Shown here in pieces: positions 7,515-42,930 of a DNA stretch of 43,757 bases. The notes beneath the pieces were generated by a model. That model had not been told where the DNA came from. It saw nothing but the letters and a program-made list of their open reading frames with translations, and did not search any database. The position numbers were made by a program, and so were the translations under genes. Source of the DNA: Escherichia phage vB_EcoS_FP; sequence record MT682706.1; one strand, 5' to 3'. Every line of letters begins with the position of its first letter. Position 1 is the first letter of the stretch.

Positions 7515-8768
7515 ATGGTTAAGACAGACAGCTACGCCAATATCTTTCTAGGCGGCAGTGATGGTAGTGAGATTTACGGGAGTTTGCAGAACCAAGCCCC
7601 TACAATTCTGGCTTCGCTTTATGCGGATAATGCGCTGGTGCGTCGAATCATCGACACAATCCCGGAAACAGCACTAGCGGCAGGATTCCACATTGATGGT
7701 ATTGATGATGAGCCTGCATTCTGGTCGCGCTGGGACTATCTAGAACTAACAAAGCACATCAATGAAGCCTGGTCGTGGGCTAGATTGTTCGGTGGAGCAG
7801 CAATTGTTGCTATCGTTAAGGACAATAGAGCGCTAACAAGTCCGGCCAGAGAAGGTGCTGAGCTTGAAACCGTTCGCGTTTACGACCGTACTCAAGTAAA
7901 AGTACAAACTCGCGAAGAGAATCCCCGTAACGCACGTTTTGGCAAGCCACTAACCTATCGCATCACCACTAATGAGAGCGATATGTTCTATGATGTGCAC
8001 TACACCCGAATTCATATCATCGATGGCGAGCGAATTCCTAACGTAATGCGTCGGCAAAATGATGGCTGGGGCCGCAGCGTTCTATCCAGTGACATTCTTG
8101 ACTCAATCAAGGATTACACCAACTGCGAACGACTTGCTACGCAGTTACTGAAGCGCAAGCAGCAGGCGGTGTGGAAAGCCAAAGGTCTTGCTGAATTGTG
8201 TGATGATAGCGAGGGATTTGGTGCCGCAAGGTTGCGCCTAGCACAGGTTGATAACAATAGCGGCGTTGGTCAGGCGATTGGCATTGACGCGGAATCTGAA
8301 GAGTATAGCGTTCTAAACTCTGATATTGGTGGGATTGATGCGTTCCTGGATAAGAAGTTTGACAGAATTGTTGCGCTGAGCGGTATTCATGAGATTATCC
8401 TGAAGAATAAGAACGTTGGCGGCGTATCATCAAGTCAGAACACCGCATTGGAGACATTCCATAAGCTAGTCGATCGCAAGCGTAACGCTGAACTACTGCC
8501 GATTCTCGGGTTCCTGATTCCGTTCATTTCAGACGAGCAGGAATGGTCAGTGGAGTTTAATCCCCTAGCGCAGGAATCAAGTAAGGATAAGGCCGAGATT
8601 CTTGAGAAGAACGTAAACAGTATTGCGGCACTAATTGCAGCTGGCGCTATGGATACCAGCGAAGCCCGTGACACACTACGCGCTATCGCACCAGAAGTTA
8701 AGATTGGTGATGGTGATATTGAGTCCACACAAAAAGAACCAGTAGAGGAGGTTGTAATTAATGAGTAA
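7515..8768 (+). CDS. portal protein
   Basis: 417 aa; position after TerL; start at ATG 7515 with GGAGA RBS (the 7488 ATG lies inside the terminator hairpin). Confidence 0.8.
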   Translation: MVKTDSYANIFLGGSDGSEIYGSLQNQAPTILASLYADNALVRRIIDTIPETALAAGFHIDGIDDEPAFWSRWDYLELTKHINEAWSWARLFGGAAIVAIVKDNRALTSPAREGAELETVRVYDRTQVKVQTREENPRNARFGKPLTYRITTNESDMFYDVHYTRIHIIDGERIPNVMRRQNDGWGRSVLSSDILDSIKDYTNCERLATQLLKRKQQAVWKAKGLAELCDDSEGFGAARLRLAQVDNNSGVGQAIGIDAESEEYSVLNSDIGGIDAFLDKKFDRIVALSGIHEIILKNKNVGGVSSSQNTALETFHKLVDRKRNAELLPILGFLIPFISDEQEWSVEFNPLAQESSKDKAEILEKNVNSIAALIAAGAMDTSEARDTLRAIAPEVKIGDGDIESTQKEPVEEVVINE

Positions 8769-14100: not shown

Positions 14101-14160
14101 CACAGCACTTTTTGATAAAGCACTTATTCAGTTTTGCTGTATAGTTAACTCATCGAAACG
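14101..14160 (+). promoter_or_regulatory. phage-specific promoter-like module (variant)
   Basis: CAGCACTTTTTGATAAA, 22 nt, TATAGTTAACTCATCGAAACGA. Confidence 0.5.
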
Positions 14161-14178: not shown

Positions 14179-14427
14179 ATGAATAACGTTAAAAACATCA
14201 TCAAGCTTGCTGCGGTTCTGGTCGCTTTTTATGCAGCAGTTCAGATTGTCAACCCAACTGGCGAGGTTGATGCAAATAGCAAGGCAAACAAATATACTGT
14301 TGAGTTTGCTAAAGCTGAGCGAGCATGTCAGAATCTTGTGGGTAGCAAGGTTGACCAAATCATGAAATATGGAAAAGAGGTTTGTAAGGACTCAGCCGCT
14401 AAGATTGCAAAAGAAAACACTAAGTAA
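14179..14427 (+). CDS. small secreted/membrane-anchored protein (82 aa), moron-like insert in tail module
   Basis: N-terminal hydrophobic segment IIKLAAVLVAFYAAVQIV; own promoter module and upstream terminator. Confidence 0.55.
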   Translation: MNNVKNIIKLAAVLVAFYAAVQIVNPTGEVDANSKANKYTVEFAKAERACQNLVGSKVDQIMKYGKEVCKDSAAKIAKENTK

Positions 14428-14465
14428 TAGAATACATACTCACAAACAATAAGAGGATTAACAAA

Positions 14466-14780
14466 ATGGCAAAGTTCAAACTTTCACTGGCAGCACTCCC
14501 TGACTTTAAGTTGCCTGTAAAATTCAAGCTGGCTAACGACCAGGATGTAGAGGTTATCTTTACAGTTAAGCACAAGAAAACATCTGAGTTGCAGGAATTG
14601 CTTAGCAGGGAGGATTTAAGCACAAAAGAACTTATTATGGCAATTGCCTCTGATTGGGATTTGGAGGAGGAATACAACGAAGATAACGTTAATGAGTTCT
14701 CCGACCTGTTCCCAGCCTCAACCGTTGCACTTACTACCGCTTATATGCAGGCACTGGCAGGCCAGCGGGCAAAAAACTAA
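14466..14780 (+). CDS. tail assembly chaperone (G-like)
   Basis: Position upstream of tape measure; ends in slippery A_AAA_AAC. Confidence 0.7.
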   Translation: MAKFKLSLAALPDFKLPVKFKLANDQDVEVIFTVKHKKTSELQELLSREDLSTKELIMAIASDWDLEEEYNEDNVNEFSDLFPASTVALTTAYMQALAGQRAKN

Positions 14781-25282: not shown

Positions 25283-25344
25283 TCGTTTCGATGAACTAAT
25301 AATACAACCGTCGGTGCGGAATGTCTTTAGCTATTCGTGCTATT
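25283..25344 (-). promoter_or_regulatory. phage-specific promoter-like module driving lipoprotein/RBP operon
   Basis: Minus strand: AATAGCACGAATAGCTAAAG ... TATTATTAGTTCATCGAAACGAAACG. Confidence 0.5.
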
Positions 25345-25720
25345 GTATACGCGTAACCAATGTAACTCGATGTATACAATCTCATCCGCGAAAAATGATA
25401 TACGCGCTGTTACGGCAATTTACGCATTGGTTACATTAAAATATCTATATATATCAACCTTTTACTCTTATTATTATTATTATATATATTACTGTGTATA
25501 TCATGTAACTACTTCTATAGAGTGTTCCGGTTATAATTTTAATATCATGTGGATTTATACAGTATTGCGTGGCAGCTATACCAATGCACCCCCTGCAAGA
25601 AACGGTATACACGATATACACGATGGTTACATTGAGCTATAGCTGGGCTGAGATGCCAAAAAGCGTAACTAGTACCAATACCTACACGGAATTACAGTAA
25701 TTCGCACGTAAACTTAATAA
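25345..25720. repeat. AT-rich non-coding control region B (homologous to region A); (TTA)n microsatellite; TACGCNNTGGTTACAT iteron-like sites
   Basis: No ORF with coding signal; shared blocks with 247-540. Confidence 0.7.
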
Positions 25721-26000: not shown

Positions 26001-26224
26001 TTAAGATGAAAACATGTGAAGAGAATTTTATATCACTAAATGATTTTATTGGTGATGATTTTGACTATTCTGATGTAATTGTTACATGGACTGCTGGAGG
26101 AGACGTTTTTTCAGATATGCTGATTTATAGTACAGACTATAGCAACTATCATTGGGAAGAAGACGAAGAATACGAAGAGGCTAGACTTTATTATTCTGAA
26201 ATCATTAACGTTAAGAGCGTTTAA
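25997..26224 (+). CDS. highly acidic small protein (75 aa)
   Basis: ATGA overlap; D/E-rich (EEDEEYEE); immediately upstream of exonuclease. Confidence 0.5.
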   Translation: MIKMKTCEENFISLNDFIGDDFDYSDVIVTWTAGGDVFSDMLIYSTDYSNYHWEEDEEYEEARLYYSEIINVKSV

Positions 26225-27212: not shown

Positions 27213-27260
27213 ATAGCACTTTTTGTTAAAACGAAATGTATGTTTCTCGCTATATTTGAA
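27212..27260 (+). promoter_or_regulatory. phage-specific promoter-like module (variant)
   Basis: AATAGCACTTTTTGTTAAAA, 22 nt, TATATTTG. Confidence 0.45.
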
Positions 27261-27283: not shown

Positions 27284-27739
27284 TTGATTATGTTAAAATT
27301 AGAGCACGTCAATTTCCCAATCACGTTTAACAGTCATGGAAATGGTGAGATTACTTTCAACACAAAAGATTATGGGTTGTGGGCAGATGGTGAAGTTTCC
27401 ACTATTGACCTGGATCATTTCATTAAACAACACAACATAAAGAACCCCAATAACTCACGCAAAAAAGATTACTATTACTACAGTATTAGTAATGAACAGA
27501 ATACACACAATACATCTATACAGTATGCTCCGATCGAGAATATGCCAATTGGAGCAACTTTAAAAGGTGTGCAGCTTGATGTTGAATCATGGTTAGAGAT
27601 TACCATAGAGCCTAAATCAATAGAGGTGTGCGAAGATGTAGTAAAACTTACATCACATCACGGCACCATTGGTAATAAGACCGAAAATCGTGGAATCAGC
27701 ATTAAGCGCGGAACGCTTGTCCGCTACGATGTTAAATGA
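27284..27739 (+). CDS. hypothetical protein (151 aa), cassette flanked by promoter modules
   Basis: ORF track; RBS AAGGA. Confidence 0.55.
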   Translation: MIMLKLEHVNFPITFNSHGNGEITFNTKDYGLWADGEVSTIDLDHFIKQHNIKNPNNSRKKDYYYYSISNEQNTHNTSIQYAPIENMPIGATLKGVQLDVESWLEITIEPKSIEVCEDVVKLTSHHGTIGNKTENRGISIKRGTLVRYDVK

Positions 27740-27787: not shown

Positions 27788-27840
27788 AAATAGCACGAAT
27801 TGCTAAAGCAATGTGGGATAGCTGATGTATAGTTACCCCA
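27788..27840 (+). promoter_or_regulatory. phage-specific promoter-like module
   Basis: AATAGCACGAATTGCTAAAG, 22 nt, TATAGTTACCCCATCAACAACGAACGAGG. Confidence 0.55.
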
Positions 27841-27862
27841 TCAACAACGAACGAGGTTAAAG

Positions 27863-31525: not shown

Positions 31526-31591
31526 TGTGTAAAGTCTCCATTTGTAAAATAGCACTAATTGCTAAGTTGGATTGTAGCATCTTTCAGGCAT

Positions 31592-31612: not shown

Positions 31613-32539
31613 TTAGTCTAGTAATTCGCTTGCTTTGTATATTCGCTTTCTTATGCCTGACTTGAAAAAATTATCATCATTTGGCATTACCACATCAAGA
31701 TTGCGATCGTCAGCAACAGCGAGTAAATCAAAATCGTGGCGAGTACAAGCGACGCGTAACTTGTAGTTTCTAAGCGCATAAGCAACCATTTCCATGTTGT
31801 AACTGGAGTGGCAAACAAGTACGCAGCGGTTGCCAGTAGCAATATGAACGCGAACACCATCAATCCAATTATCGACCAGATAAGCGTACTCATCATCTTT
31901 AAAGGCACCAATAACAGCAATAGACTGGCGAGTGTAATCTTTTGCAGCATAACTAACATCTCCATCTTCATTGATAAACATTACATTGCACATTTCTTCC
32001 GATATGCCGTCACTATAAGCCATAAAACACGGTATTGCGTGTATTATTTCGCCTGATTTTGTTCTGCCAACATCAAAGCCAAACTCGCTATAGATACCCT
32101 CGTATGTACTGAGCGGAGTTGATTCTACTCTTTCCGTCCTTTCCATTATCTCTAAGCATCTTTCGTGGTCAATCTGGGAGCCCATTTTATAAGGGGATGT
32201 ACGTGAGGCCCTCTTATTTGCTTTAGCTACAACCTCAATAGGAACTAAGTTTAGCCAGTCACCAAGCGTATCTATTGTTTCACTATAACTCATTCCAGAA
32301 CACTTCATTACCCAACCTACACCAGAATCATTTCCACATTGGTTGCATATTGCTGCGCCATTTCCCTTTTCTTGACCTAACTCATCAGTGAATCGAAACC
32401 TATCCTTGCCAAAGCAGTAAGGGCACGGACCGTGCTTCTTGCTGAGATTCTCCTTTGTCCATCCAAGATGCGATGAGTAGAACTCACTCCACATCCCTTT
32501 CATCTTGGATATCACTTCGTTCTTATCATGGTGACTCAT
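31613..32539 (-). CDS. DNA primase-like protein (zinc ribbon CPYC...CNQC)
   Basis: Start at ATG 32539 (RBS GGAGGT); N-terminal C4 zinc-binding motif; position near helicase. Confidence 0.5.
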   Translation of the reverse strand: MSHHDKNEVISKMKGMWSEFYSSHLGWTKENLSKKHGPCPYCFGKDRFRFTDELGQEKGNGAAICNQCGNDSGVGWVMKCSGMSYSETIDTLGDWLNLVPIEVVAKANKRASRTSPYKMGSQIDHERCLEIMERTERVESTPLSTYEGIYSEFGFDVGRTKSGEIIHAIPCFMAYSDGISEEMCNVMFINEDGDVSYAAKDYTRQSIAVIGAFKDDEYAYLVDNWIDGVRVHIATGNRCVLVCHSSYNMEMVAYALRNYKLRVACTRHDFDLLAVADDRNLDVVMPNDDNFFKSGIRKRIYKASELLD

Positions 32540-32559: not shown

Positions 32560-32612
32560 AAGGCACTATACATAATGCACAGTGCCATTGTTTATCAATT
32601 CGTGCTATTTCC
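32560..32612 (-). promoter_or_regulatory. phage-specific promoter-like module (minus strand)
   Basis: Minus strand: AAATAGCACGAATTGATAAA, 22 nt, TATAGTGCC. Confidence 0.5.
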
Positions 32613-33087
32613 CTTGCTCTTTAGCTTTTCGTGCTGCCTCGTTAGCGGCCTTAATCTTGCGCCATGATCGACACTCTGGCTTCGTGGCTAACTCAGCCTC
32701 AGTGACCACACGCAGCATGTGACGTTTTTTGCAACGTAGTGTAAGTGGCTTTCCGTTGCCATCGAATTGCAAATCTGGTCGGCAGAATGTAGCGCGAAAG
32801 CCTTCTCCATTTCGTTTGTAGTAGTTGTGCGACAACTGAGCACCGCGTGCAGAAATCATACCACGCTTAAACCATTCTTCCACGGCCTGTGGTGTTACCT
32901 TTAATTTCTTTGCCATATTTGCCTTTGTGCCGAAGAAATCAAGAACAATTTCCAGCCGCGCACGTAAACCCGCCCTTACCTCATCTTTCAAAACGTAGTA
33001 ACCTGAAGGTCGTTTTCGCTGCTTTTTATCTTCAGTGCGGATGGTTCCGTTATTGCCGTTAATGGTTCTCTTGTCGACTGTATTCAT
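32605..33087 (-). CDS. HTH DNA-binding protein (Cro/YdaS-like), basic
   Basis: HTH block AKKLKVTPQAVEEWFKRGMISARGA; ATG 33087 with GAGGTAATAAG RBS. Confidence 0.55.
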   Translation of the reverse strand: MNTVDKRTINGNNGTIRTEDKKQRKRPSGYYVLKDEVRAGLRARLEIVLDFFGTKANMAKKLKVTPQAVEEWFKRGMISARGAQLSHNYYKRNGEGFRATFCRPDLQFDGNGKPLTLRCKKRHMLRVVTEAELATKPECRSWRKIKAANEAARKAKEQGK

Positions 33088-33098
33088 CTTATTACCTC

Positions 33099-33146
33099 GA
33101 TAGCATTTTTTGTTAAAAGTCATCCTGATTTGATGGTAATATTGTA
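33099..33146 (+). promoter_or_regulatory. phage-specific promoter-like module (variant) for helicase operon
   Basis: GATAGCATTTTTTGTTAAAAG, 22 nt, TAATATTGTAC; divergent from HTH gene. Confidence 0.45.
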
Positions 33147-33188
33147 CTCAATTAAACGCTACAAGACAATTTTTATAGGAATTTAGAT

Positions 33189-35183
33189 ATGTTGCCTATC
33201 GAGAAGCTGGTTGCCAACTTTGATAAAGAAAGAATTAAACAGATTCAGAAAGACTATCAGTTTGGAGAGATAACCCCTTACGAATTCCAGTGCGTTACAT
33301 TTGACGCAATTGGGAAGGCTATTGGCAAGTACGAAGCGCCATTTATCGCAGACCTTTCCGTATCGGCTGGTAAGACAATCATTCTCGCTATGATTGGTAA
33401 GCGTATGGAGCAGCTTGGCCTTCCTTATATGGTGCTTTCTCGCCAGTCAGAGATAATCAGCCAGAACTCAGAAGAGCTTCGCAATTTTGGCATCCGTAAT
33501 AGCGTCTATTGCTCCGGGCTTAACGTTAAATCAGTTTATTACCCAACCATAGTTGCCAGTGAGGGCACGGCAGCTAACGGCTTATTTAAGGGGCTTGGTG
33601 ACTATGTTCCGGCTGTTATCGCAATCGATGAATGTCACATGGTCGATCACATGGATATCGTGGAAGCTGAAGAGAACGAAGAAACATTTGAACAAATGAG
33701 CACAAAGAAAGGCGAGATGGTTTTTAAGGATGGCGTTAATACTGGATTGCTTGGTACTGGTCGTGCGCAGTACACGCTAATAATCACTGAGATGAAGCGT
33801 CGCTGCCGTGAAAAATACGGGCGGGAGCTTCGTATATTCGGCCTTACTGGTAGCCCTTATCGAAACAATGATCGTATCGTCGTTAGCAATCCAAATATCC
33901 GTGGGTTCTGGCGAAAAACTGTGATTCAGGTTCCAACAAATTACCTTGTTGATTTGGGATTCGTGGTTCCAACTGTTTACGGCGAGGTTGGTGACCTTGG
34001 TTATGACCTTAGCGAATTTGCGCCTGATGGAAGCGATGGGGTTAAGGATTTTAGCAAAAAAGAAATGGATGCAATGGCTGCAAAGATTCACGACAACCAA
34101 TCCATGACTCAAAAGATAATGGGTTTTGTTGTAAAAATACTAGAGACCCGCAACGCAGCATTGGTTACTTGTGCTGGTAAGCTCCATTGTGATGAGGCCG
34201 CTGCGGCACTGCCAGATAGATACCCTTACGCTATCATTACTGATTCTACGGGGGAGAAGAAGCGCAGGGAGATTCTTGCTGATTGCCAGACAGGGAAGTA
34301 CAAAATCATATTCCAGATTGGTTGTCTAACCACGGGCGTGTCGGTTCCACCGTGGGATACAAGCGTGATACTTAGAAAGATCGGCAGCCTTACACTAATG
34401 ATCCAGTTGCTTGGTCGGGGTATGCGAATTCTAAAGAAAAAGCATATAGAAATGGGGATGAAAAAAGATGATCACCTTGTTCTGGACTTCGCTGGCGCAC
34501 TTGATGACATGGCAGAGCTTTACTTTGACCCAATAATTGAGGAGCTTCAGGCTGAGAAGTTTAAATCCTCAAGAAAAGGTGGTGATGAGGTTCGCCAGTG
34601 TCCGCAATGTGGATATGAGAACTCGCCATTTGCTAGACGCTGTAGCAATAAGATTGATGGTGTTAGATGCGATCACTTTTTCCAGTTCACAACATGTGAT
34701 GATATTACCGACCAACAAACAAAGGCGGTAATCAAGAAAGGTTGTGGAACTAAAAATGACATAGCAGCAAAAGTTTGTCGTGAATGCGGAGAAATTCTTA
34801 AAGACCCAAACGCTAACCTGACTGGAAAGATGTATCGTCGCGGAGACTATTTGCGAGTTTATGATTTTCAAGTTGGTTTAAGCAAGAATCAAACGGGCAT
34901 TGTAGTTAAGTACAATATCATGGCCCACAACGGAGAAAGATTTAACGCTTGGGAGTTCTTCAATCCAGAATCTGACCATAGGGTTTGTAGTGTGCTTTGG
35001 AAAAACTTTTGCCTTGCTCACATTGAAAATCGCGCTGAAGCAGCACGAATTGGCAGACTGAAGAATGCCAGAATGATTATGACTAACGCAGATAAGTTTC
35101 GTGCGCCAGTCCAGGTGACACACCGCAAGAATGGCAAAGGAAAGGATATAATAGCTTTTAAGAATTTTGGAGAATTGTTATGA
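33189..35183 (+). CDS. SF2 DEAD/DExH-family helicase with C-terminal zinc-ribbon motifs
   Basis: Walker A SAGKT, motif II DECH, CPQCG...C..C zinc-binding motifs. Confidence 0.85.
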   Translation: MLPIEKLVANFDKERIKQIQKDYQFGEITPYEFQCVTFDAIGKAIGKYEAPFIADLSVSAGKTIILAMIGKRMEQLGLPYMVLSRQSEIISQNSEELRNFGIRNSVYCSGLNVKSVYYPTIVASEGTAANGLFKGLGDYVPAVIAIDECHMVDHMDIVEAEENEETFEQMSTKKGEMVFKDGVNTGLLGTGRAQYTLIITEMKRRCREKYGRELRIFGLTGSPYRNNDRIVVSNPNIRGFWRKTVIQVPTNYLVDLGFVVPTVYGEVGDLGYDLSEFAPDGSDGVKDFSKKEMDAMAAKIHDNQSMTQKIMGFVVKILETRNAALVTCAGKLHCDEAAAALPDRYPYAIITDSTGEKKRREILADCQTGKYKIIFQIGCLTTGVSVPPWDTSVILRKIGSLTLMIQLLGRGMRILKKKHIEMGMKKDDHLVLDFAGALDDMAELYFDPIIEELQAEKFKSSRKGGDEVRQCPQCGYENSPFARRCSNKIDGVRCDHFFQFTTCDDITDQQTKAVIKKGCGTKNDIAAKVCRECGEILKDPNANLTGKMYRRGDYLRVYDFQVGLSKNQTGIVVKYNIMAHNGERFNAWEFFNPESDHRVCSVLWKNFCLAHIENRAEAARIGRLKNARMIMTNADKFRAPVQVTHRKNGKGKDIIAFKNFGELL

Positions 35184-35599
35184 ACATTACAGACAAAGTT
35201 GATTACATTGAGTTTTACTCTGGACCGGTTAAGTCGTGTCCGAAAGAGGATGACGAACAAATCTTTTGCTCTGATTGGGTTAAGTATAACTACCCAGATA
35301 TGGTATTTTTCCACTGCGTGAATGAGGGAAAGAAAACCATTGGTCAAGCAAGAAAGGACCAGGCTAAAGGTTTGCTTAAAGGGGTTTCTGACTGCTTATT
35401 CCTGATACCTGAATCTCTGCGTGGCAAATACCCTTTCGGAGCCATAGAGCTAAAGAGAGCAGGAAAAACCCAGGCAAGTCCAGTCAGCAATGAACAGAAG
35501 TCCTTCCTGAAAAGCGTGAGAGAATCAGGGGGTTTCGCTGCCGTGGCTTACGGACGAGAAGGTTTTCTTGCAGCATTCAAAGAAATGATTTCAAAATAG
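35180..35599 (+). CDS. VRR-NUC domain nuclease
   Basis: 139 aa; AIELKRAGKTQAS...Q.KS block; ATGA overlap with helicase. Confidence 0.6.
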   Translation: MNITDKVDYIEFYSGPVKSCPKEDDEQIFCSDWVKYNYPDMVFFHCVNEGKKTIGQARKDQAKGLLKGVSDCLFLIPESLRGKYPFGAIELKRAGKTQASPVSNEQKSFLKSVRESGGFAAVAYGREGFLAAFKEMISK

Positions 35600-35645
35600 C
35601 ACGAATTGCTAAAGAGATTTCGCAGGGATGCGATATAGTTACTCC
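35595..35645 (+). promoter_or_regulatory. phage-specific promoter-like module
   Basis: AATAGCACGAATTGCTAAAG, 22 nt, TATAGTTACTCCATCGAAACGAAACG. Confidence 0.55.
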
Positions 35646-35675
35646 ATCGAAACGAAACGCAGAGGGAGAAACAAA

Positions 35676-35876
35676 ATGGCTACTATCCTTACTGGTAAAT
35701 TCTACGAATCACGCAAAACTGGTTATGAATATGAATTAGGAATTACTCCTGATTCTTATATTCTGATTGATGTTGAAGATGCAAACTATGCATTCGAAGT
35801 TAGCCCGACATTCAAAGATGATCTGGAAACTGTTAAAAACGCATTCGGCGAAAAATTTGATGAGGTATCAGAATAA
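35676..35876 (+). CDS. hypothetical protein (66 aa)
   Basis: ATG 35676 with RBS AGAGGGAGAAA. Confidence 0.5.
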   Translation: MATILTGKFYESRKTGYEYELGITPDSYILIDVEDANYAFEVSPTFKDDLETVKNAFGEKFDEVSE

Positions 35877-36222: not shown

Positions 36223-36467
36223 TAGTTGAAACCGGACGCGCCGCAGTATGGGCGCACTGTGGAGAAGCGGGTTTGCAGGATGACATTAAGAAGATCTCCA
36301 GCTTCTTTGACATAAAAGATATCAGCGTTGTCTTTAATGGTAAATTCTCTTACATGGATGAGCGACCAAGAAAATACGTAAGAGTTAAACCAGGGGTTAG
36401 AATTGATGTTAACGAGTTCCTTAAATCTGAGGGATTCAAGTTTAAGATAACGAAGCCTAAGGATTAA
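36219..36467 (+). CDS. hypothetical protein (82 aa)
   Basis: ORF track. Confidence 0.5.
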   Translation: MIVETGRAAVWAHCGEAGLQDDIKKISSFFDIKDISVVFNGKFSYMDERPRKYVRVKPGVRIDVNEFLKSEGFKFKITKPKD

Positions 36468-36469
36468 GT

Positions 36470-36721
36470 ATGTTGGGTTTAGATTTTCAGCCAGAGCATT
36501 ACGATTTAGTATATGGGCAAAGTGGAGCTAAGTTTAGGGCGATACCTATTGCTGACTGGTTCCCTCCTGATTATGCGGATGTGAATGCAAAAACTAAAGA
36601 CGGTAAGTGGGTACAGATTTACTACTCTCCAGCATGCGGAAACCTTTGCATGACTGACCTTGACCAGAAGTTAACAATTAGTGCTGATTTGATTGACTGC
36701 TGGTTAAAAGAAGTTGAATGA
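36470..36721 (+). CDS. hypothetical protein (83 aa)
   Basis: ORF track. Confidence 0.5.
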   Translation: MLGLDFQPEHYDLVYGQSGAKFRAIPIADWFPPDYADVNAKTKDGKWVQIYYSPACGNLCMTDLDQKLTISADLIDCWLKEVE

Positions 36722-36804: not shown

Positions 36805-37935
36805 ATGGCAACTGCAAAAATCACTAACGAACAACTACGCGAAGAACTGGCTAATGGCATGACCAACAAGGCAATCGCAGAGAAATACGGAATGAACATT
36901 CGCAACGTTGAATTGCGTCGTAGTAAATTAGCGAAGAGCGGGGAATTGCACGGCAACCCAGGCATCAAGAAGCTAGTTCCTGAAGGTTATATGGTTAAAG
37001 GCACATCAACGATGATTGATGCCGAAGGTAACGAAAAGATTCGTTGGGTTAAAACATCCGTAGATAATGAGCGCCTTGAGGTTTTAATGGAGAAAGCTAG
37101 AGATGCATTCTGCTCTGATTTGCCAAAGGCAGATGTGGTCAACCACTCAGGAAATGAAGTTAACTCTGAATTAATGACTCTTTACCCGATTTTCGATATC
37201 CATATCGGCATGATGGCACATCGTCATGAATCTGGTGAGAATTATGACACGAAAACGGCAGAGAAATTAATGGGATCATATTTTGACCATGCAATTTCTG
37301 TATCTCCAGCCTCAGAGAAAGCAGTAATTTTAGTTGGCGGCGACTTCCTTCACTCAGACGGACTTGAGGCTGTAACCCCAGCAAGCGGACACTGCCTTGA
37401 TCAAGATAGCCGATATGCTAAGTTAGTTTATGTGGCAATTCGCTCAATTCGTGGCGCGGTAGAGAAGATGCTTAAGAAACACAAGGAAGTAGAGATTCAA
37501 ATCATAGAGGGAAATCACGACCAGAGTGGTATGATTTGGCTCCGTGCGGCAATGGCTGCATTTTATGAAAACGAGAATCGCGTGTTTGTTGATACCAGTC
37601 CGGCAATCATGCACAAGACGCGATTTGGTTCAACATTACTTGGTTACACGCACGGCCACACAATGAAGAAAGCTGAGGGTCGACTCGCGGCAATGGCGAC
37701 AGACTACCGCAAAGACTTTGGTGAATGTGAATTCGTTTACTGCCATTCCGGCCATTTCCATCATGCAACCGTTACAGAATGCACTCTTGGGATTGATGAG
37801 GTGCACCCTGCACTTGCCAGCAAGGACGCATATGCAGCACGGGGAGGGTGGCGATCATACCGACAGGCTGCTGCAATTGTTTACCACAAGAATTTTGGCG
37901 AGGTTGGTAGACACATTTATCGCCCTGGTATGTAA
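36805..37935 (+). CDS. HTH domain fused to calcineurin-like metallophosphoesterase
   Basis: N-terminal HTH-like segment; phosphoesterase motifs DIHIG, GGDFLHSDG, EGNHDQ. Confidence 0.55.
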   Translation: MATAKITNEQLREELANGMTNKAIAEKYGMNIRNVELRRSKLAKSGELHGNPGIKKLVPEGYMVKGTSTMIDAEGNEKIRWVKTSVDNERLEVLMEKARDAFCSDLPKADVVNHSGNEVNSELMTLYPIFDIHIGMMAHRHESGENYDTKTAEKLMGSYFDHAISVSPASEKAVILVGGDFLHSDGLEAVTPASGHCLDQDSRYAKLVYVAIRSIRGAVEKMLKKHKEVEIQIIEGNHDQSGMIWLRAAMAAFYENENRVFVDTSPAIMHKTRFGSTLLGYTHGHTMKKAEGRLAAMATDYRKDFGECEFVYCHSGHFHHATVTECTLGIDEVHPALASKDAYAARGGWRSYRQAAAIVYHKNFGEVGRHIYRPGM

Positions 37936-38482: not shown

Positions 38483-39039
38483 AAATGACTAAATTATTTA
38501 TCCTTAACGGACCGGCTGGAGTTGGCAAGGACACTATCGCAGATGTTATGCTCGAGTTGGGTGTTGTTGATGGGAAAGTTTCATTCAAGTCACCAATGTT
38601 CGATGTAGCCAGGGGGATGCTATCAAAGGATGAATTTGATTGGTTTATTGAGAACTACAACAACCGAGACGAGAAAGAAAAGCATCAAGAGATACTTGGC
38701 GGTAAAAGCATTCGAGAATTTATGATTTGGATTAGCGAGTCTGTAATGAAGCCAGTCTTTGGTGATTATGTTTTCGGTAAAAGGCTAGCCCAGTCACTTG
38801 GTGATGGTTGCTACATTTGCGCTGACGGTGGGTTTGCTAGCGAGATTAAGCCACTGATCGACACTGGTGTTGAGGTCACGTTAATCAGATTGCATAGGGC
38901 AGGGTACAAATTTGATGGCGATAGTCGCTCATACATTCATGGGGTGTGCGCAAGAGAAATTGATGTTCGTGTTGTTGATGGTGATATTGATGGAACATCA
39001 GCATTGGTAAGGCACGTAATAAATAGCACGAATTGCTAA
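38479..39039 (+). CDS. P-loop kinase (dNMP kinase-like)
   Basis: Walker A GPAGVGKDT; ATG 38479 with ACGGAG RBS; runs through a promoter motif, ending NSTNC. Confidence 0.6.
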   Translation: MKMTKLFILNGPAGVGKDTIADVMLELGVVDGKVSFKSPMFDVARGMLSKDEFDWFIENYNNRDEKEKHQEILGGKSIREFMIWISESVMKPVFGDYVFGKRLAQSLGDGCYICADGGFASEIKPLIDTGVEVTLIRLHRAGYKFDGDSRSYIHGVCAREIDVRVVDGDIDGTSALVRHVINSTNC

Positions 39040-39072
39040 AGATAATAATAAAAACTTGGTTATAGTTAACAC
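39021..39072 (+). promoter_or_regulatory. phage-specific promoter-like module
   Basis: AATAGCACGAATTGCTAAAG, 22 nt, TATAGTTAACACATCGAAACGAGATG. Confidence 0.55.
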
Positions 39073-39083
39073 ATCGAAACGAG

Positions 39084-39284
39084 ATGAACCAAGCGAGGAA
39101 AAACAAAATGACTAAAATGATTTACTGCACCAAGAACAACTCCAAGACCCTGCCATTTACTGTTAACCAGCCGTACAACGCAGAGTACCAGGGCGATGGA
39201 TACTACAAGATTTACGGAGACGATATGACGCACATCTTAGCGCCGATTGATGGTTCGTTAGTTGAATTTATTATCGCTGACTAG
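39084..39284 (+). CDS. hypothetical protein (66 aa)
   Basis: RBS GAGGAAAAAC; ORF track. Confidence 0.55.
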   Translation: MNQARKNKMTKMIYCTKNNSKTLPFTVNQPYNAEYQGDGYYKIYGDDMTHILAPIDGSLVEFIIAD

Positions 39285-39630: not shown

Positions 39631-40116
39631 ATGAAGCAGAAGCTGCTAATTAGCGCGGCTACGGCTGCGGCAATATACATCGCAGCGCCGCTTATTGAGC
39701 TCGTTGAGGGTGTGGAGAACAAGCCTTACATGGACATTGCTGGAATCCCTACAGTTTGTTCAGGTATTACTGGACCTGACGTTGTTTGGGGTAAAACTTA
39801 CAGTAACAGGGAGTGCCGGAACCTACTGGAGAAGCACATCCAGATTCATGCTAAGTATGTTCAGGATGCGGTTACCTACCCAATTGCACGGCAGACAAGG
39901 GCAGCGCTAATCAGCTTTAGCTACAACGTTGGTGGTCATGCCATGAAGAACTCAACGGCAATTAGACTTATCAATCAGGGTAAAGTGGAGCAGGGTTGTA
40001 AGGCTCTTGGGATGTGGAATAAAGCTACCGTTAACGGCAAAAAGGTTATTGTTAAGGGTTTGGTTAATCGCAGGAACGAGGAGGTTAAGCTATGCTTAAG
40101 TGGATTGCAGCGTTAG
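39631..40116 (+). CDS. SAR endolysin (lysozyme, P21 R-like)
   Basis: N-terminal SAR-like hydrophobic segment; blocks KPYMDIAGIPTVCSGIT and SFSYNVGGHA recalled to resemble phage P21 R lysozyme. Confidence 0.85.
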   Translation: MKQKLLISAATAAAIYIAAPLIELVEGVENKPYMDIAGIPTVCSGITGPDVVWGKTYSNRECRNLLEKHIQIHAKYVQDAVTYPIARQTRAALISFSYNVGGHAMKNSTAIRLINQGKVEQGCKALGMWNKATVNGKKVIVKGLVNRRNEEVKLCLSGLQR

Positions 40117-42449: not shown

Positions 42450-42496
42450 ATTATATCAACGACCGCTTATAATTCATTATCAATTTGTGCTATTTA
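42450..42496 (-). promoter_or_regulatory. phage-specific promoter-like module (minus strand) for ATPase gene
   Basis: Minus strand: AAATAGCACAAATTGATAA, 22 nt, TATAAT, with the -10 overlapping the first in-frame ATG at 42451. Confidence 0.5.
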
Positions 42497-42869: not shown

Positions 42870-42930
42870 GTTTCGATGAGATTAATATACATGAAAAGCC
42901 CCGAAGGGCTTTAGCAATTCGTGCTATTGC
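42870..42930 (-). promoter_or_regulatory. phage-specific promoter-like module (minus strand) containing a terminator-like hairpin in its spacer
   Basis: Minus strand: AATAGCACGAATTGCTAAAGCCCTTCGGGGCTTTTCATG-TATATTAATCTCATCGAAACGAAAC. Confidence 0.55.

Follow-up and report, generated by a model that had tools for sequence, protein, structure and literature searches.

In Escherichia phage vB_EcoS_FP (sequence record MT682706.1; the whole 43,757-nucleotide stretch that we analysed is called the window), a gene for a small basic helix-turn-helix (HTH) protein, here the regulator, lies between the DNA primase and helicase genes, and its promoter overlaps that of the divergently transcribed helicase operon. 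This node architecture is real and conserved and, as read from sequence, appears to be a bidirectional promoter switch in a T1-like lytic phage. The helicase promoter is one of about 14 promoters that lack a -35 hexamer and carry the upstream element aaATAGCACnnnTTGnTAAAa (the module promoters). The original prediction placed a candidate control node here and made the regulator the prime candidate for recognizing a palindrome in the modules. The divergent arrangement stood, and the reading as a whole is partly supported: we consider a control node plausible, at a tentative level, and are equally guarded about whether the regulator binds the module element. If it does, activation of the module promoters combined with autorepression is the likeliest outcome. 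The node consists of the following features, P_reg and P_hel being the promoters of the regulator and the helicase.

32605-33087, minus strand: regulator gene, 160 amino acids (aa), T1 gp23 ortholog, phrog_2856 (open reading frame (ORF) and homology)
33095-33098, minus strand: Shine-Dalgarno (SD) sequence GAGG of the regulator, 6 nt 5' of the ATG at 33087
33141-33169, minus strand: sigma70-type promoter of the regulator (P_reg), -35 TTGTCT (33169-33164), N17, -10 TACAAT (33146-33141)
33100-33119, plus strand: variant upstream element of the helicase promoter (P_hel), ATAGCATTTTTTGTTAAAAG
33137-33143, plus strand: P_hel -10 (TAATAT/AATATT); the stretch 16-18 bp upstream holds no -35 hexamer
33189-35183, plus strand: helicase gene (ORF)
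35180-35599, plus strand: VRR-NUC nuclease gene (ORF), same operon as the helicase

The regulator is encoded on the minus strand and the helicase and VRR-NUC genes on the plus strand, as predicted. The variant module said to overlap the regulator's 5' region is also there; it lies in DNA of the 5' untranslated region, 1 nt from the regulator SD and outside the coding sequence, and an alternative 172-aa start at 33123 has no SD. Compared with the consensus, the node element has T for C at position 7 and TGTTA in place of TGCTA, and its dyad is imperfect (TAGCA at 33101-33105, N5, TGTTA at 33111-33115).

The -10 of P_reg overlaps the module -10 of P_hel on the opposite strand. Relatives with a protein identity as low as 52% were included, and the node intergenic regions collected from all of them gave 65 distinct sequences; in 62 of these the best sigma70 -10 on the regulator strand falls within 0-3 nt of the helicase -10. 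In these relatives the P_reg -10 is mostly a perfect TATAAT, and a spacer of 16-17 bp separates it from a -35 such as TTGTCA (Klebsiella weberviruses) or TTGAAT (T1). The shared TATTATA core reads as a -10 both ways, and thus P_reg and P_hel could not be occupied together. A promoter scan of this region alone was not significant (9 matches versus 8.4 +/- 3.3 in shuffled sequences); P_reg is assigned because it is conserved among relatives, not because of the single-sequence match. The node element is always of a 'TTT' spacer type, ATAGCA[C/T]TTTTTG[T/C]TAAA, in the window and the 65 related intergenic sequences, and a 'GAA' spacer type that is frequent elsewhere in these genomes never occurs at the regulator-helicase node.

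The regulator is a one-gene unit with a host-type promoter and has module promoters on both flanks. On the primase side we find:

32591-32610, minus strand: upstream element of the primase promoter, AAATAGCACGAATTGATAAA, overlapping the regulator stop TAG (32607-32605)
32562-32586, minus strand: terminator-like hairpin GGCACT...AGTGCC followed by TTTATTGTTT, enclosing the primase -10 TATAGT (32570-32565)
31613-32539, minus strand: DNA primase gene, served by the module at 32591-32610

The hairpin at 32562-32586 probably ends the regulator transcript. A hairpin around the primase -10 recurs in other clades, and the T1 annotation calls it a terminator.

Across the window, just four intergenic canonical sigma70 matches (at least 9/12) face a gene. 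One is P_reg and the others are:

572-600, plus strand: canonical sigma70 match facing ORF 641-1162 (DUF7174)
14405-14433, plus strand: canonical sigma70 match facing ORF 14466-14780
26124-26152, plus strand: canonical sigma70 match facing exonuclease VIII

All four are candidate module-independent, perhaps immediate-early, promoters. They echo a 2024 re-annotation of phage TLS, in which three sigma70-like promoters only were given (PMC11447400). The regulator is the sole gene of its kind with a module-independent promoter, which fits a cascade, since a cascade needs one.

The TAGCA..TGCTA palindrome ascribed to the modules is enriched in the window, with 9 occurrences of TAGCA-N(0-20)-TGCTA versus 1.4 +/- 1.1 expected (0 of 100 shuffles reach 9) and N5 spacing in 8 of the 9; at the node itself the palindrome is imperfect (TGTTA). 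A fuller search gave about 15 copies of AAATAGCACGAATTGCTAAA-N20-TATAGTTAC-CCATCGAAACGAAA. A logo built from 196 non-redundant copies out of 84 related sequences has near-invariant blocks ATAGCAC, TTG and TAAA, with G/T, A/T and A/T as the central three bases. Positions G3, C4, C6 and G12 are conserved at 93-99%, and the C of TGCTA is retained in 62% of the copies versus 98% for its mirror, G3. The half-sites of the dyad are spaced by 10 bp, with an A/T-rich centre of 3 bp.

The distance from TTGnTA to the module -10 (T.60 A.71 T.65 w w T.78) is constant at 22 bp; G occurs at -14 in 65% of copies, and a CA dinucleotide, the predicted start, lies 7 nt past the -10. Counted from this predicted +1, the element spans about -50 to -33 and its dyad is centred near -42. 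Positions -35 to -30 read AAAAmm (logo positions 14-20, T-A-A-A-m-m-n), with no TTG at the -35 place, so the modules have no -35 hexamer. Only the copy at 32608 (minus strand) reaches 9/12 in the canonical scan, with a weak first hexamer TAAACA, and none of the module copies appears in a stricter intergenic canonical promoter scan. We discarded TTGnTA as an ordinary -35, given the rigid 22-bp spacing and the lack of a -10-like hexamer 17 bp downstream. A sigma32-type reading of the CCCCAT that follows some of the -10s was also discarded, as other copies have no CCCCAT and as its distance from TTG, about 31 bp in one copy counted, is too long. For each oriented copy in the window, an SD and a start codon follow 19-39 nt after the predicted +1, and T1 has about 25 module copies in the same layout.

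A 21-nt direct repeat, aaATAGCACnnnTTGnTAAAA, has been published for phage TLS, with T1, Rtp and Rogue1 also mentioned; its function was left open (stoperator, enhancer site or UP element) and no binding factor was named (PMC11447400). The consensus of the TLS repeat is identical to the window element and its orientation with transcription is alike. It lies about 76 nt upstream of start codons, compared with 50 + 19-39 nt in the window. From its sequence context, the repeat appears to be the upstream half of a class of promoters without a -35. Besides the node and primase copies, the window contains:

1704-1721, plus strand: module copy (upstream element)
2215-2232, plus strand: module copy, consensus
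3150-3167, plus strand: module copy, consensus
5318-5335, plus strand: module copy with a weak -10, ahead of ORF 5390-5902
14102-14119, plus strand: degenerate module copy, ahead of ORF 14179-14427
25326-25343, minus strand: module copy, ahead of ORF 25258-25028
27213-27230, plus strand: module copy, ahead of ORF 27290-27739
27790-27807, plus strand: module copy, consensus, ahead of the Erf recombinase
31549-31566, plus strand: orphan upstream element, without a -10 or a downstream gene
35596-35613, plus strand: module copy, consensus, ahead of ORF 35676-35876
39023-39040, plus strand: module copy, consensus, ahead of the lysis region
42476-42493, minus strand: module copy, ahead of the DUF3987 ATPase gene
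42910-42927, minus strand: consensus module copy whose spacer contains a terminator

The module at 35596 probably also serves a 376-aa gene at 36805. Flanked by the tailspike start and the primase terminator, the orphan at 31549-31566 is directed into the 3' end of the primase gene. Its place and orientation are conserved in T1 and in the related loci L016, L085, L211 and L214. Conservation of a copy without a -10 favours a binding site over an element used by RNA polymerase only.

Module -10s are often bracketed by a copy-specific inverted repeat, such as GGGGTAA-TTTGATATAG-TTACCCC; examples are found at 2236-2262 and 32562-32586 (minus strand) in the window, at 36462-36500 in the T1 locus (L003), and in many related loci. 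A perfect stem of at least 6 bp is present in 30% of 116 non-redundant copies versus 8.6% (maximum 14.8%) of arm-swapped controls, and the mean stem around the -10 is 4.92 versus 4.09 +/- 0.08 in controls. Some of these hairpins carry a T-run and resemble terminators of the upstream unit; others have no T-run. Rho-independent terminators of the preceding unit lie inside the 22-bp spacer at 1722-1744 and 42885-42907 (minus strand) (CCCGCTCCGGAGGGTTCTGTTAT; GCCCTTCGGGGCTTTTCATG), so that terminator and next promoter overlap, and likewise in T1 at 39976 and 41956. The initial transcribed sequence CATCGAAACGAAA is conserved from the predicted +1 (6-20 nt past the -10) and is followed by an A-rich run, for example at 27839-27852, 35645-35658 and 39072-39085 (C 61% and A 71% at -1/+1). 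It is a candidate leader, translation enhancer or processing signal.

The element and the regulator gene occur together. Of the sequences examined, all 89 with a full-length regulator homolog, N-arm (N-terminal arm) included (the window and 88 loci), have the element, at 2-5 copies per 10 kb, and this set includes the most divergent homologs from an exhaustive hidden Markov model (HMM) search. The helicase family is wider than the regulator family (1,467 versus 824 phage records), and we used as outgroups Salmonella phage seszw, Klebsiella phages IME279 (whole genome) and KP591P1, and Vibrio phage K135, which have helicase, primase, VRR-NUC and exonuclease VIII genes in common with the window. 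These four have no regulator homolog by tblastn or HMM and no element copies at up to 2 mismatches in 88 kb, where about 0.6 would be expected by chance. In three of the four, primase and helicase are directly divergent or have a small unrelated ORF alone between them. Presence together and absence together support a link between gene and element.

Short 101-aa relatives of the regulator, located between helicase and primase, keep the HTH and the C-terminal domain (C-domain) and have no N-terminal arm (N-arm); their contigs have no intergenic module. At one such locus (L212, likewise without intergenic modules), an element copy with 1 mismatch (ATAGCATCTTTTGCTAAA) occurs at 8286-8303 (plus strand) inside the coding sequence of the 101-aa regulator, with a chance probability of about 0.003 for 9 kb.

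Host RNA polymerase alone could read the modules, through the -10 or extended -10 and an unusual upstream element contacted by sigma or the C-terminal domain of the alpha subunit. On this reading the role of the regulator would shrink to local Cro-like autoregulation or early shut-off, and its operators, in the variable stretch of the intergenic region, would differ from lineage to lineage. We judge this unlikely, though it deserves serious weight. A highly conserved polymerase would account for an element that is invariant across phages of different host genera, and lineage-specific operators for a recognition helix that varies between lineages (see below). The G at -14 in 65% of copies also fits, and UP-like enhancers are one of the options in the TLS paper (PMC11447400). 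However, the invariant G3, C4, C6 and G12 are unlike A/T-rich UP elements, TTGnTA lies 22 bp from the -10 and beyond the reach of sigma region 4, and the orphan copy has no -10. The element was not found in the same-host relatives without the regulator. Among the IMG/VR matches listed, multi-copy clusters are found only in contigs of about 26-53 kb and one 7-kb fragment, mostly at the size of Drexlerviridae (45-53 kb), and single matches elsewhere look like chance. We looked in the window's intergenic region for a conserved lineage-specific dyad and saw none. As candidates for such operators we considered long inverted repeats that bracket the -10 in T1 and some clades, not in the window; we rejected them, as inverted repeats around the -10 are general to modules and not particular to the regulator node.

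The original prediction of a basic YdaS/Cro-like HTH protein was borne out. The regulator has an isoelectric point of 10.36 (38 K+R versus 17 D+E), and sub-threshold Pfam scores for P22_Cro (PF14549, E=7.5e-6) and YdaS (PF15943, E=6.5e-4), missing the curated cut-offs (26.1 versus 30.2 bits and 19.9 versus 30 bits). Precomputed matches to both families are present on some of its homologs, of which we retrieved 113, and the family profile matches P22 Cro and Xfaso Cro. An AlphaFold2 model built from 36 homologs (predicted local distance difference test (pLDDT) 88, and >94 for residues 30-130) has a five-helix all-alpha fold with a helix-turn-helix, and its best PDB matches are all-alpha Cro proteins. 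The HTH helices are H1 35-52, H2 55-62, H3 66-75 and H4 80-93. Outside them are a disordered N-terminal stretch of 30 residues, a small C-domain (96-127) and a basic C-terminal helix. Residues 5-24 of the N-arm are invariant and disordered, with the motif DKRxxNGNNGxxRGxDKKxRKRP. Compared with the all-alpha Cro proteins P22 Cro (1rzs), N15 Cro (2hin/6on0) and Xfaso1 Cro (3bd1) (PF14549/PF15943), which have about 60-70 aa, the 160-aa regulator adds the 30-residue invariant disordered arm, a 30-residue C-domain (GFRAxFCRPDLxFDxNGKP...RC) and the basic tail.

By homology the regulator is a member of the T1 gp23 family. It matches phrog_2856, 'transcriptional regulator', over residues 1-157 (E=2.9e-84, PHROGs) and shares 52% identity with T1 gp23 (YP_003922). 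The family's function is known as annotation only, and our literature search found no experiment on it. Gene order in the genome is that of the annotated relative OzMSK and of phage T1, and Veterinaerplatzvirus coliphages (Drexlerviridae, Braunvirinae) match its 31.5-35.5 kb region at about 92% identity. T1 gp23 and its Drexlerviridae orthologs have the same primase-helicase position and the same flanking promoter elements as in the window.

The Cro-type fold, together with half-sites that are 10 bp apart as for a Cro/cI dimer, supports the regulator as reader of the element. Several observations weigh against this. In 112 aligned sequences (the window protein and 111 homologs; entropy per segment), HTH helices 2 and 3 are the least conserved of the fold, at 2.24 and 2.23 bits, with lower values for the N-arm (0.86), the loop 76-79 (0.72) and the C-domain (1.27). 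Helix 3 has just two positions, W72 (89%) and R75 (79%), with a weighted top-residue frequency above 0.6. Escherichia, Klebsiella, Vibrio (Vc1) and metagenomic lineages have one and the same element despite dissimilar recognition helices, which share almost nothing (for example PQAVEEWFKRG versus CVRLTNAYRLRG). Cro/cI proteins that share an operator usually retain recognition-helix residues, and the conserved helix expected on that basis is absent from the regulator family. The 5-bp dyad is asymmetric, with non-symmetric ATAGCAC and TAAAA flanks, and co-occurrence amounts to about one evolutionary event, at least five other non-structural genes having the same pattern. A second HTH protein has an invariant recognition helix and the same phyletic pattern. 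A phage-made activator would mean a delay if the early host-takeover genes are also module-dependent, and our literature search found no study of binding, no transcriptome and no transcription start site map for T1, Drexlerviridae or Webervirus. Covariation between recognition helix and element was sought as a signal and there is none, since the element does not vary; this was counted against readout by helix 3. Per-clade de novo 7-mer enrichment was swamped by coding bias and uninformative.

Because the recognition helix is hypervariable and the element invariant, the invariant disordered N-arm would, if the regulator reads the element, be a likelier reader than the recognition helix and the better contact, with either DNA or polymerase. 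The second HTH protein could instead be the reader:

36805-37935, plus strand: 376-aa phosphoesterase, T1 gp16-like, phrog_704, with an N-terminal tri-helical HTH at residues 8-44 (36805-36945)

A Pfam search of 20 other small or core ORFs gave no other DNA-binding domain at the thresholds used; a relaxed re-search of the N-terminus of this protein, one of the 20, gave sub-threshold HTH matches (GerE, E=0.0035; Sigma70_r4_2, E=0.077), a LuxR/sigma-region-4 likeness. One homolog has a precomputed PF08281 match. The AlphaFold2 model has helices at 8-16, 21-28 and 32-44 with a core pLDDT of about 85. An invariant element predicts an invariant recognition helix, and in the phosphoesterase this helix, GMNIRxVExRxxLAK, is nearly invariant over 49 distinct sequences. 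Its phyletic pattern equals that of the regulator, and LuxR-type activators typically work from about -42. We nevertheless regard this HTH, rather than the Cro-like protein, as a distinctly unlikely reader: every sequence match is below curated thresholds, its structural matches are generic, and it is joined to an Mre11-like nuclease domain (assigned to DNA repair in databases) that it may just tether to DNA. No canonical promoter or terminator was found upstream of the gene, which is apparently transcribed from module 35596 and therefore could not start a cascade.

A further variant, which we hold to be quite improbable, is that the element is read by the disordered basic N-arm, alone or with the sigma-region-4-like HTH of the phosphoesterase, in place of -35 recognition. 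This would be a family-specific promoter-specificity device for host sigma70 polymerase throughout Drexlerviridae, with the non-canonical 22-bp spacing and with the -10 presented within copy-specific hairpins that double as terminators of the preceding unit. Phage factors that replace -35 recognition at -35-less host-sigma70 promoters are found in phage Mu (Mor/C) and T4 (MotA), where they activate middle/late promoters. The fold of Mor/C and MotA differs from that of the regulator, and in T4 the centre of the MotA box is at about -30 and its spacing to the -10 is 11-13 bp, compared with -42 and 22 bp for the window element, which does not fit a MotA box. No AsiA or MotA homolog was seen among the ORFs tested. 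The element does not qualify as an UP element either, which is A/T-rich at -40 to -60 without invariant G/C, in contrast to the 93-99% G/C positions here.

The regulator could also bind the elements and repress, as a stoperator- or Cro-like late shut-off of early and middle promoters. This presupposes binding and partly overlaps with our tentative estimate for it; as an outcome we think it very improbable. It would suit the Cro repressor fold, the node copy downstream of the regulator's own predicted start (a repressing position), and the orientation of the elements with transcription, which the TLS authors note for stoperators (PMC11447400). Promoters without a -35, however, must get upstream activation from something, and the elements lie outside transcription units, at a constant distance ahead of the -10. 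The phage is lytic, with no integrase or immunity repressor among the annotated OzMSK or T1 genes. Mycobacteriophage L5 stoperators are asymmetric repressor sites inside transcribed regions, downstream of promoters, and the window sites share only their orientation, being fixed 22 bp upstream of the -10; the exception is the node copy relative to P_reg.

Least probable of all, in our view, is that the regulator is not a transcription factor and serves as a replication or recombination accessory, for example an origin- or helicase-loading DNA-binding protein. Its gene lies between primase and helicase in every lineage (OzMSK, T1, Vc1 and metagenomic contigs), and its conserved surfaces lie off the recognition helix. 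Against this, the outgroups operate the same replication module without it, and the overlapping promoters and flanking modules point to transcription control.

As a working model, put forward guardedly as a whole, unmodified host sigma70 RNA polymerase would first act at TTGTCT-N17-TACAAT (minus strand) and produce a short monocistronic regulator mRNA. The Cro-fold regulator would next bind the 20-bp aaATAGCACnnnTTGnTAAAa, 22 bp upstream of the -10, at about 14 promoters, with the dyad centre near -42, where lambda cI at PRM and class II CRP/FNR touch RNA polymerase. Either reading of the sequence or contact with RNA polymerase would probably go through the invariant disordered basic N-arm. 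The node copy (33100-33119) is predicted at about -51 to -32 of P_hel, centred near -42, and at about +17 to +36 of P_reg, with the two -10s overlapping on opposite strands. With this geometry, occupancy would switch P_hel on and P_reg off.

Lambda cI at OR2/PRM and CRP/FNR at class II promoters use dimer-sized dyads near -42 where the -35 is poor or lacking, and the window element is predicted to resemble them. The site of a class II activator is centred near -41.5; the predicted centre of the window dyad is 42 bp upstream of a +1 that is itself predicted from CA. The likeness to lambda cI/PRM extends to a Cro/cI-type HTH, divergent promoters on one control region and, putatively, autoregulation. 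Unlike these systems, the window has about 14 target promoters in a lytic phage and -10s that overlap rather than lie back-to-back. The regulator, whose binding is putative, has a recognition helix that is not conserved and an extra invariant N-arm and C-domain.

Two further observations concern other parts of the genome. Two direct repeats that have diverged (about 100 and 69 nt long, 77-78% identical), together with AT-rich TATATA-type stretches, are common to the left end (263-546) and the 25.4-kb divergent region (25332-25671), as families D3, D8 and D10; these could be a duplicated regulatory or origin-like region. A 170-aa ORF at 5390-5902 with its own weak module (5318-5902, plus strand) lies between the small and large terminase genes, which are adjacent in the close relative OzMSK. 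It looks like an inserted mobile gene, perhaps a homing endonuclease.

The regulator gene and the repeat have both been described before; the present analysis adds the anatomy of the promoters, the switch formed by the overlapping pair, the pattern of joint presence and absence, and a shortlist of two candidate readers. Compared with the TLS paper, we add that a rigid 22 bp links the repeat to a -10, that a -35 is missing, that the dyad is predicted at -42 and that there is overlap with P_reg. Among phages of E. coli and Klebsiella, the T1-like group (Drexlerviridae) is one of the commonest; it has therapeutic uses and is also a pest of fermentations. These results bear on how Drexlerviridae programme the host polymerase: two conserved phage HTH proteins are candidate readers, and the gene of one of them belongs to the conserved switch of overlapping promoters beside the replication genes. 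If the model is true, the regulator and its element would form a compact, portable activator/promoter pair, and temporal control across this phage family would be explained.

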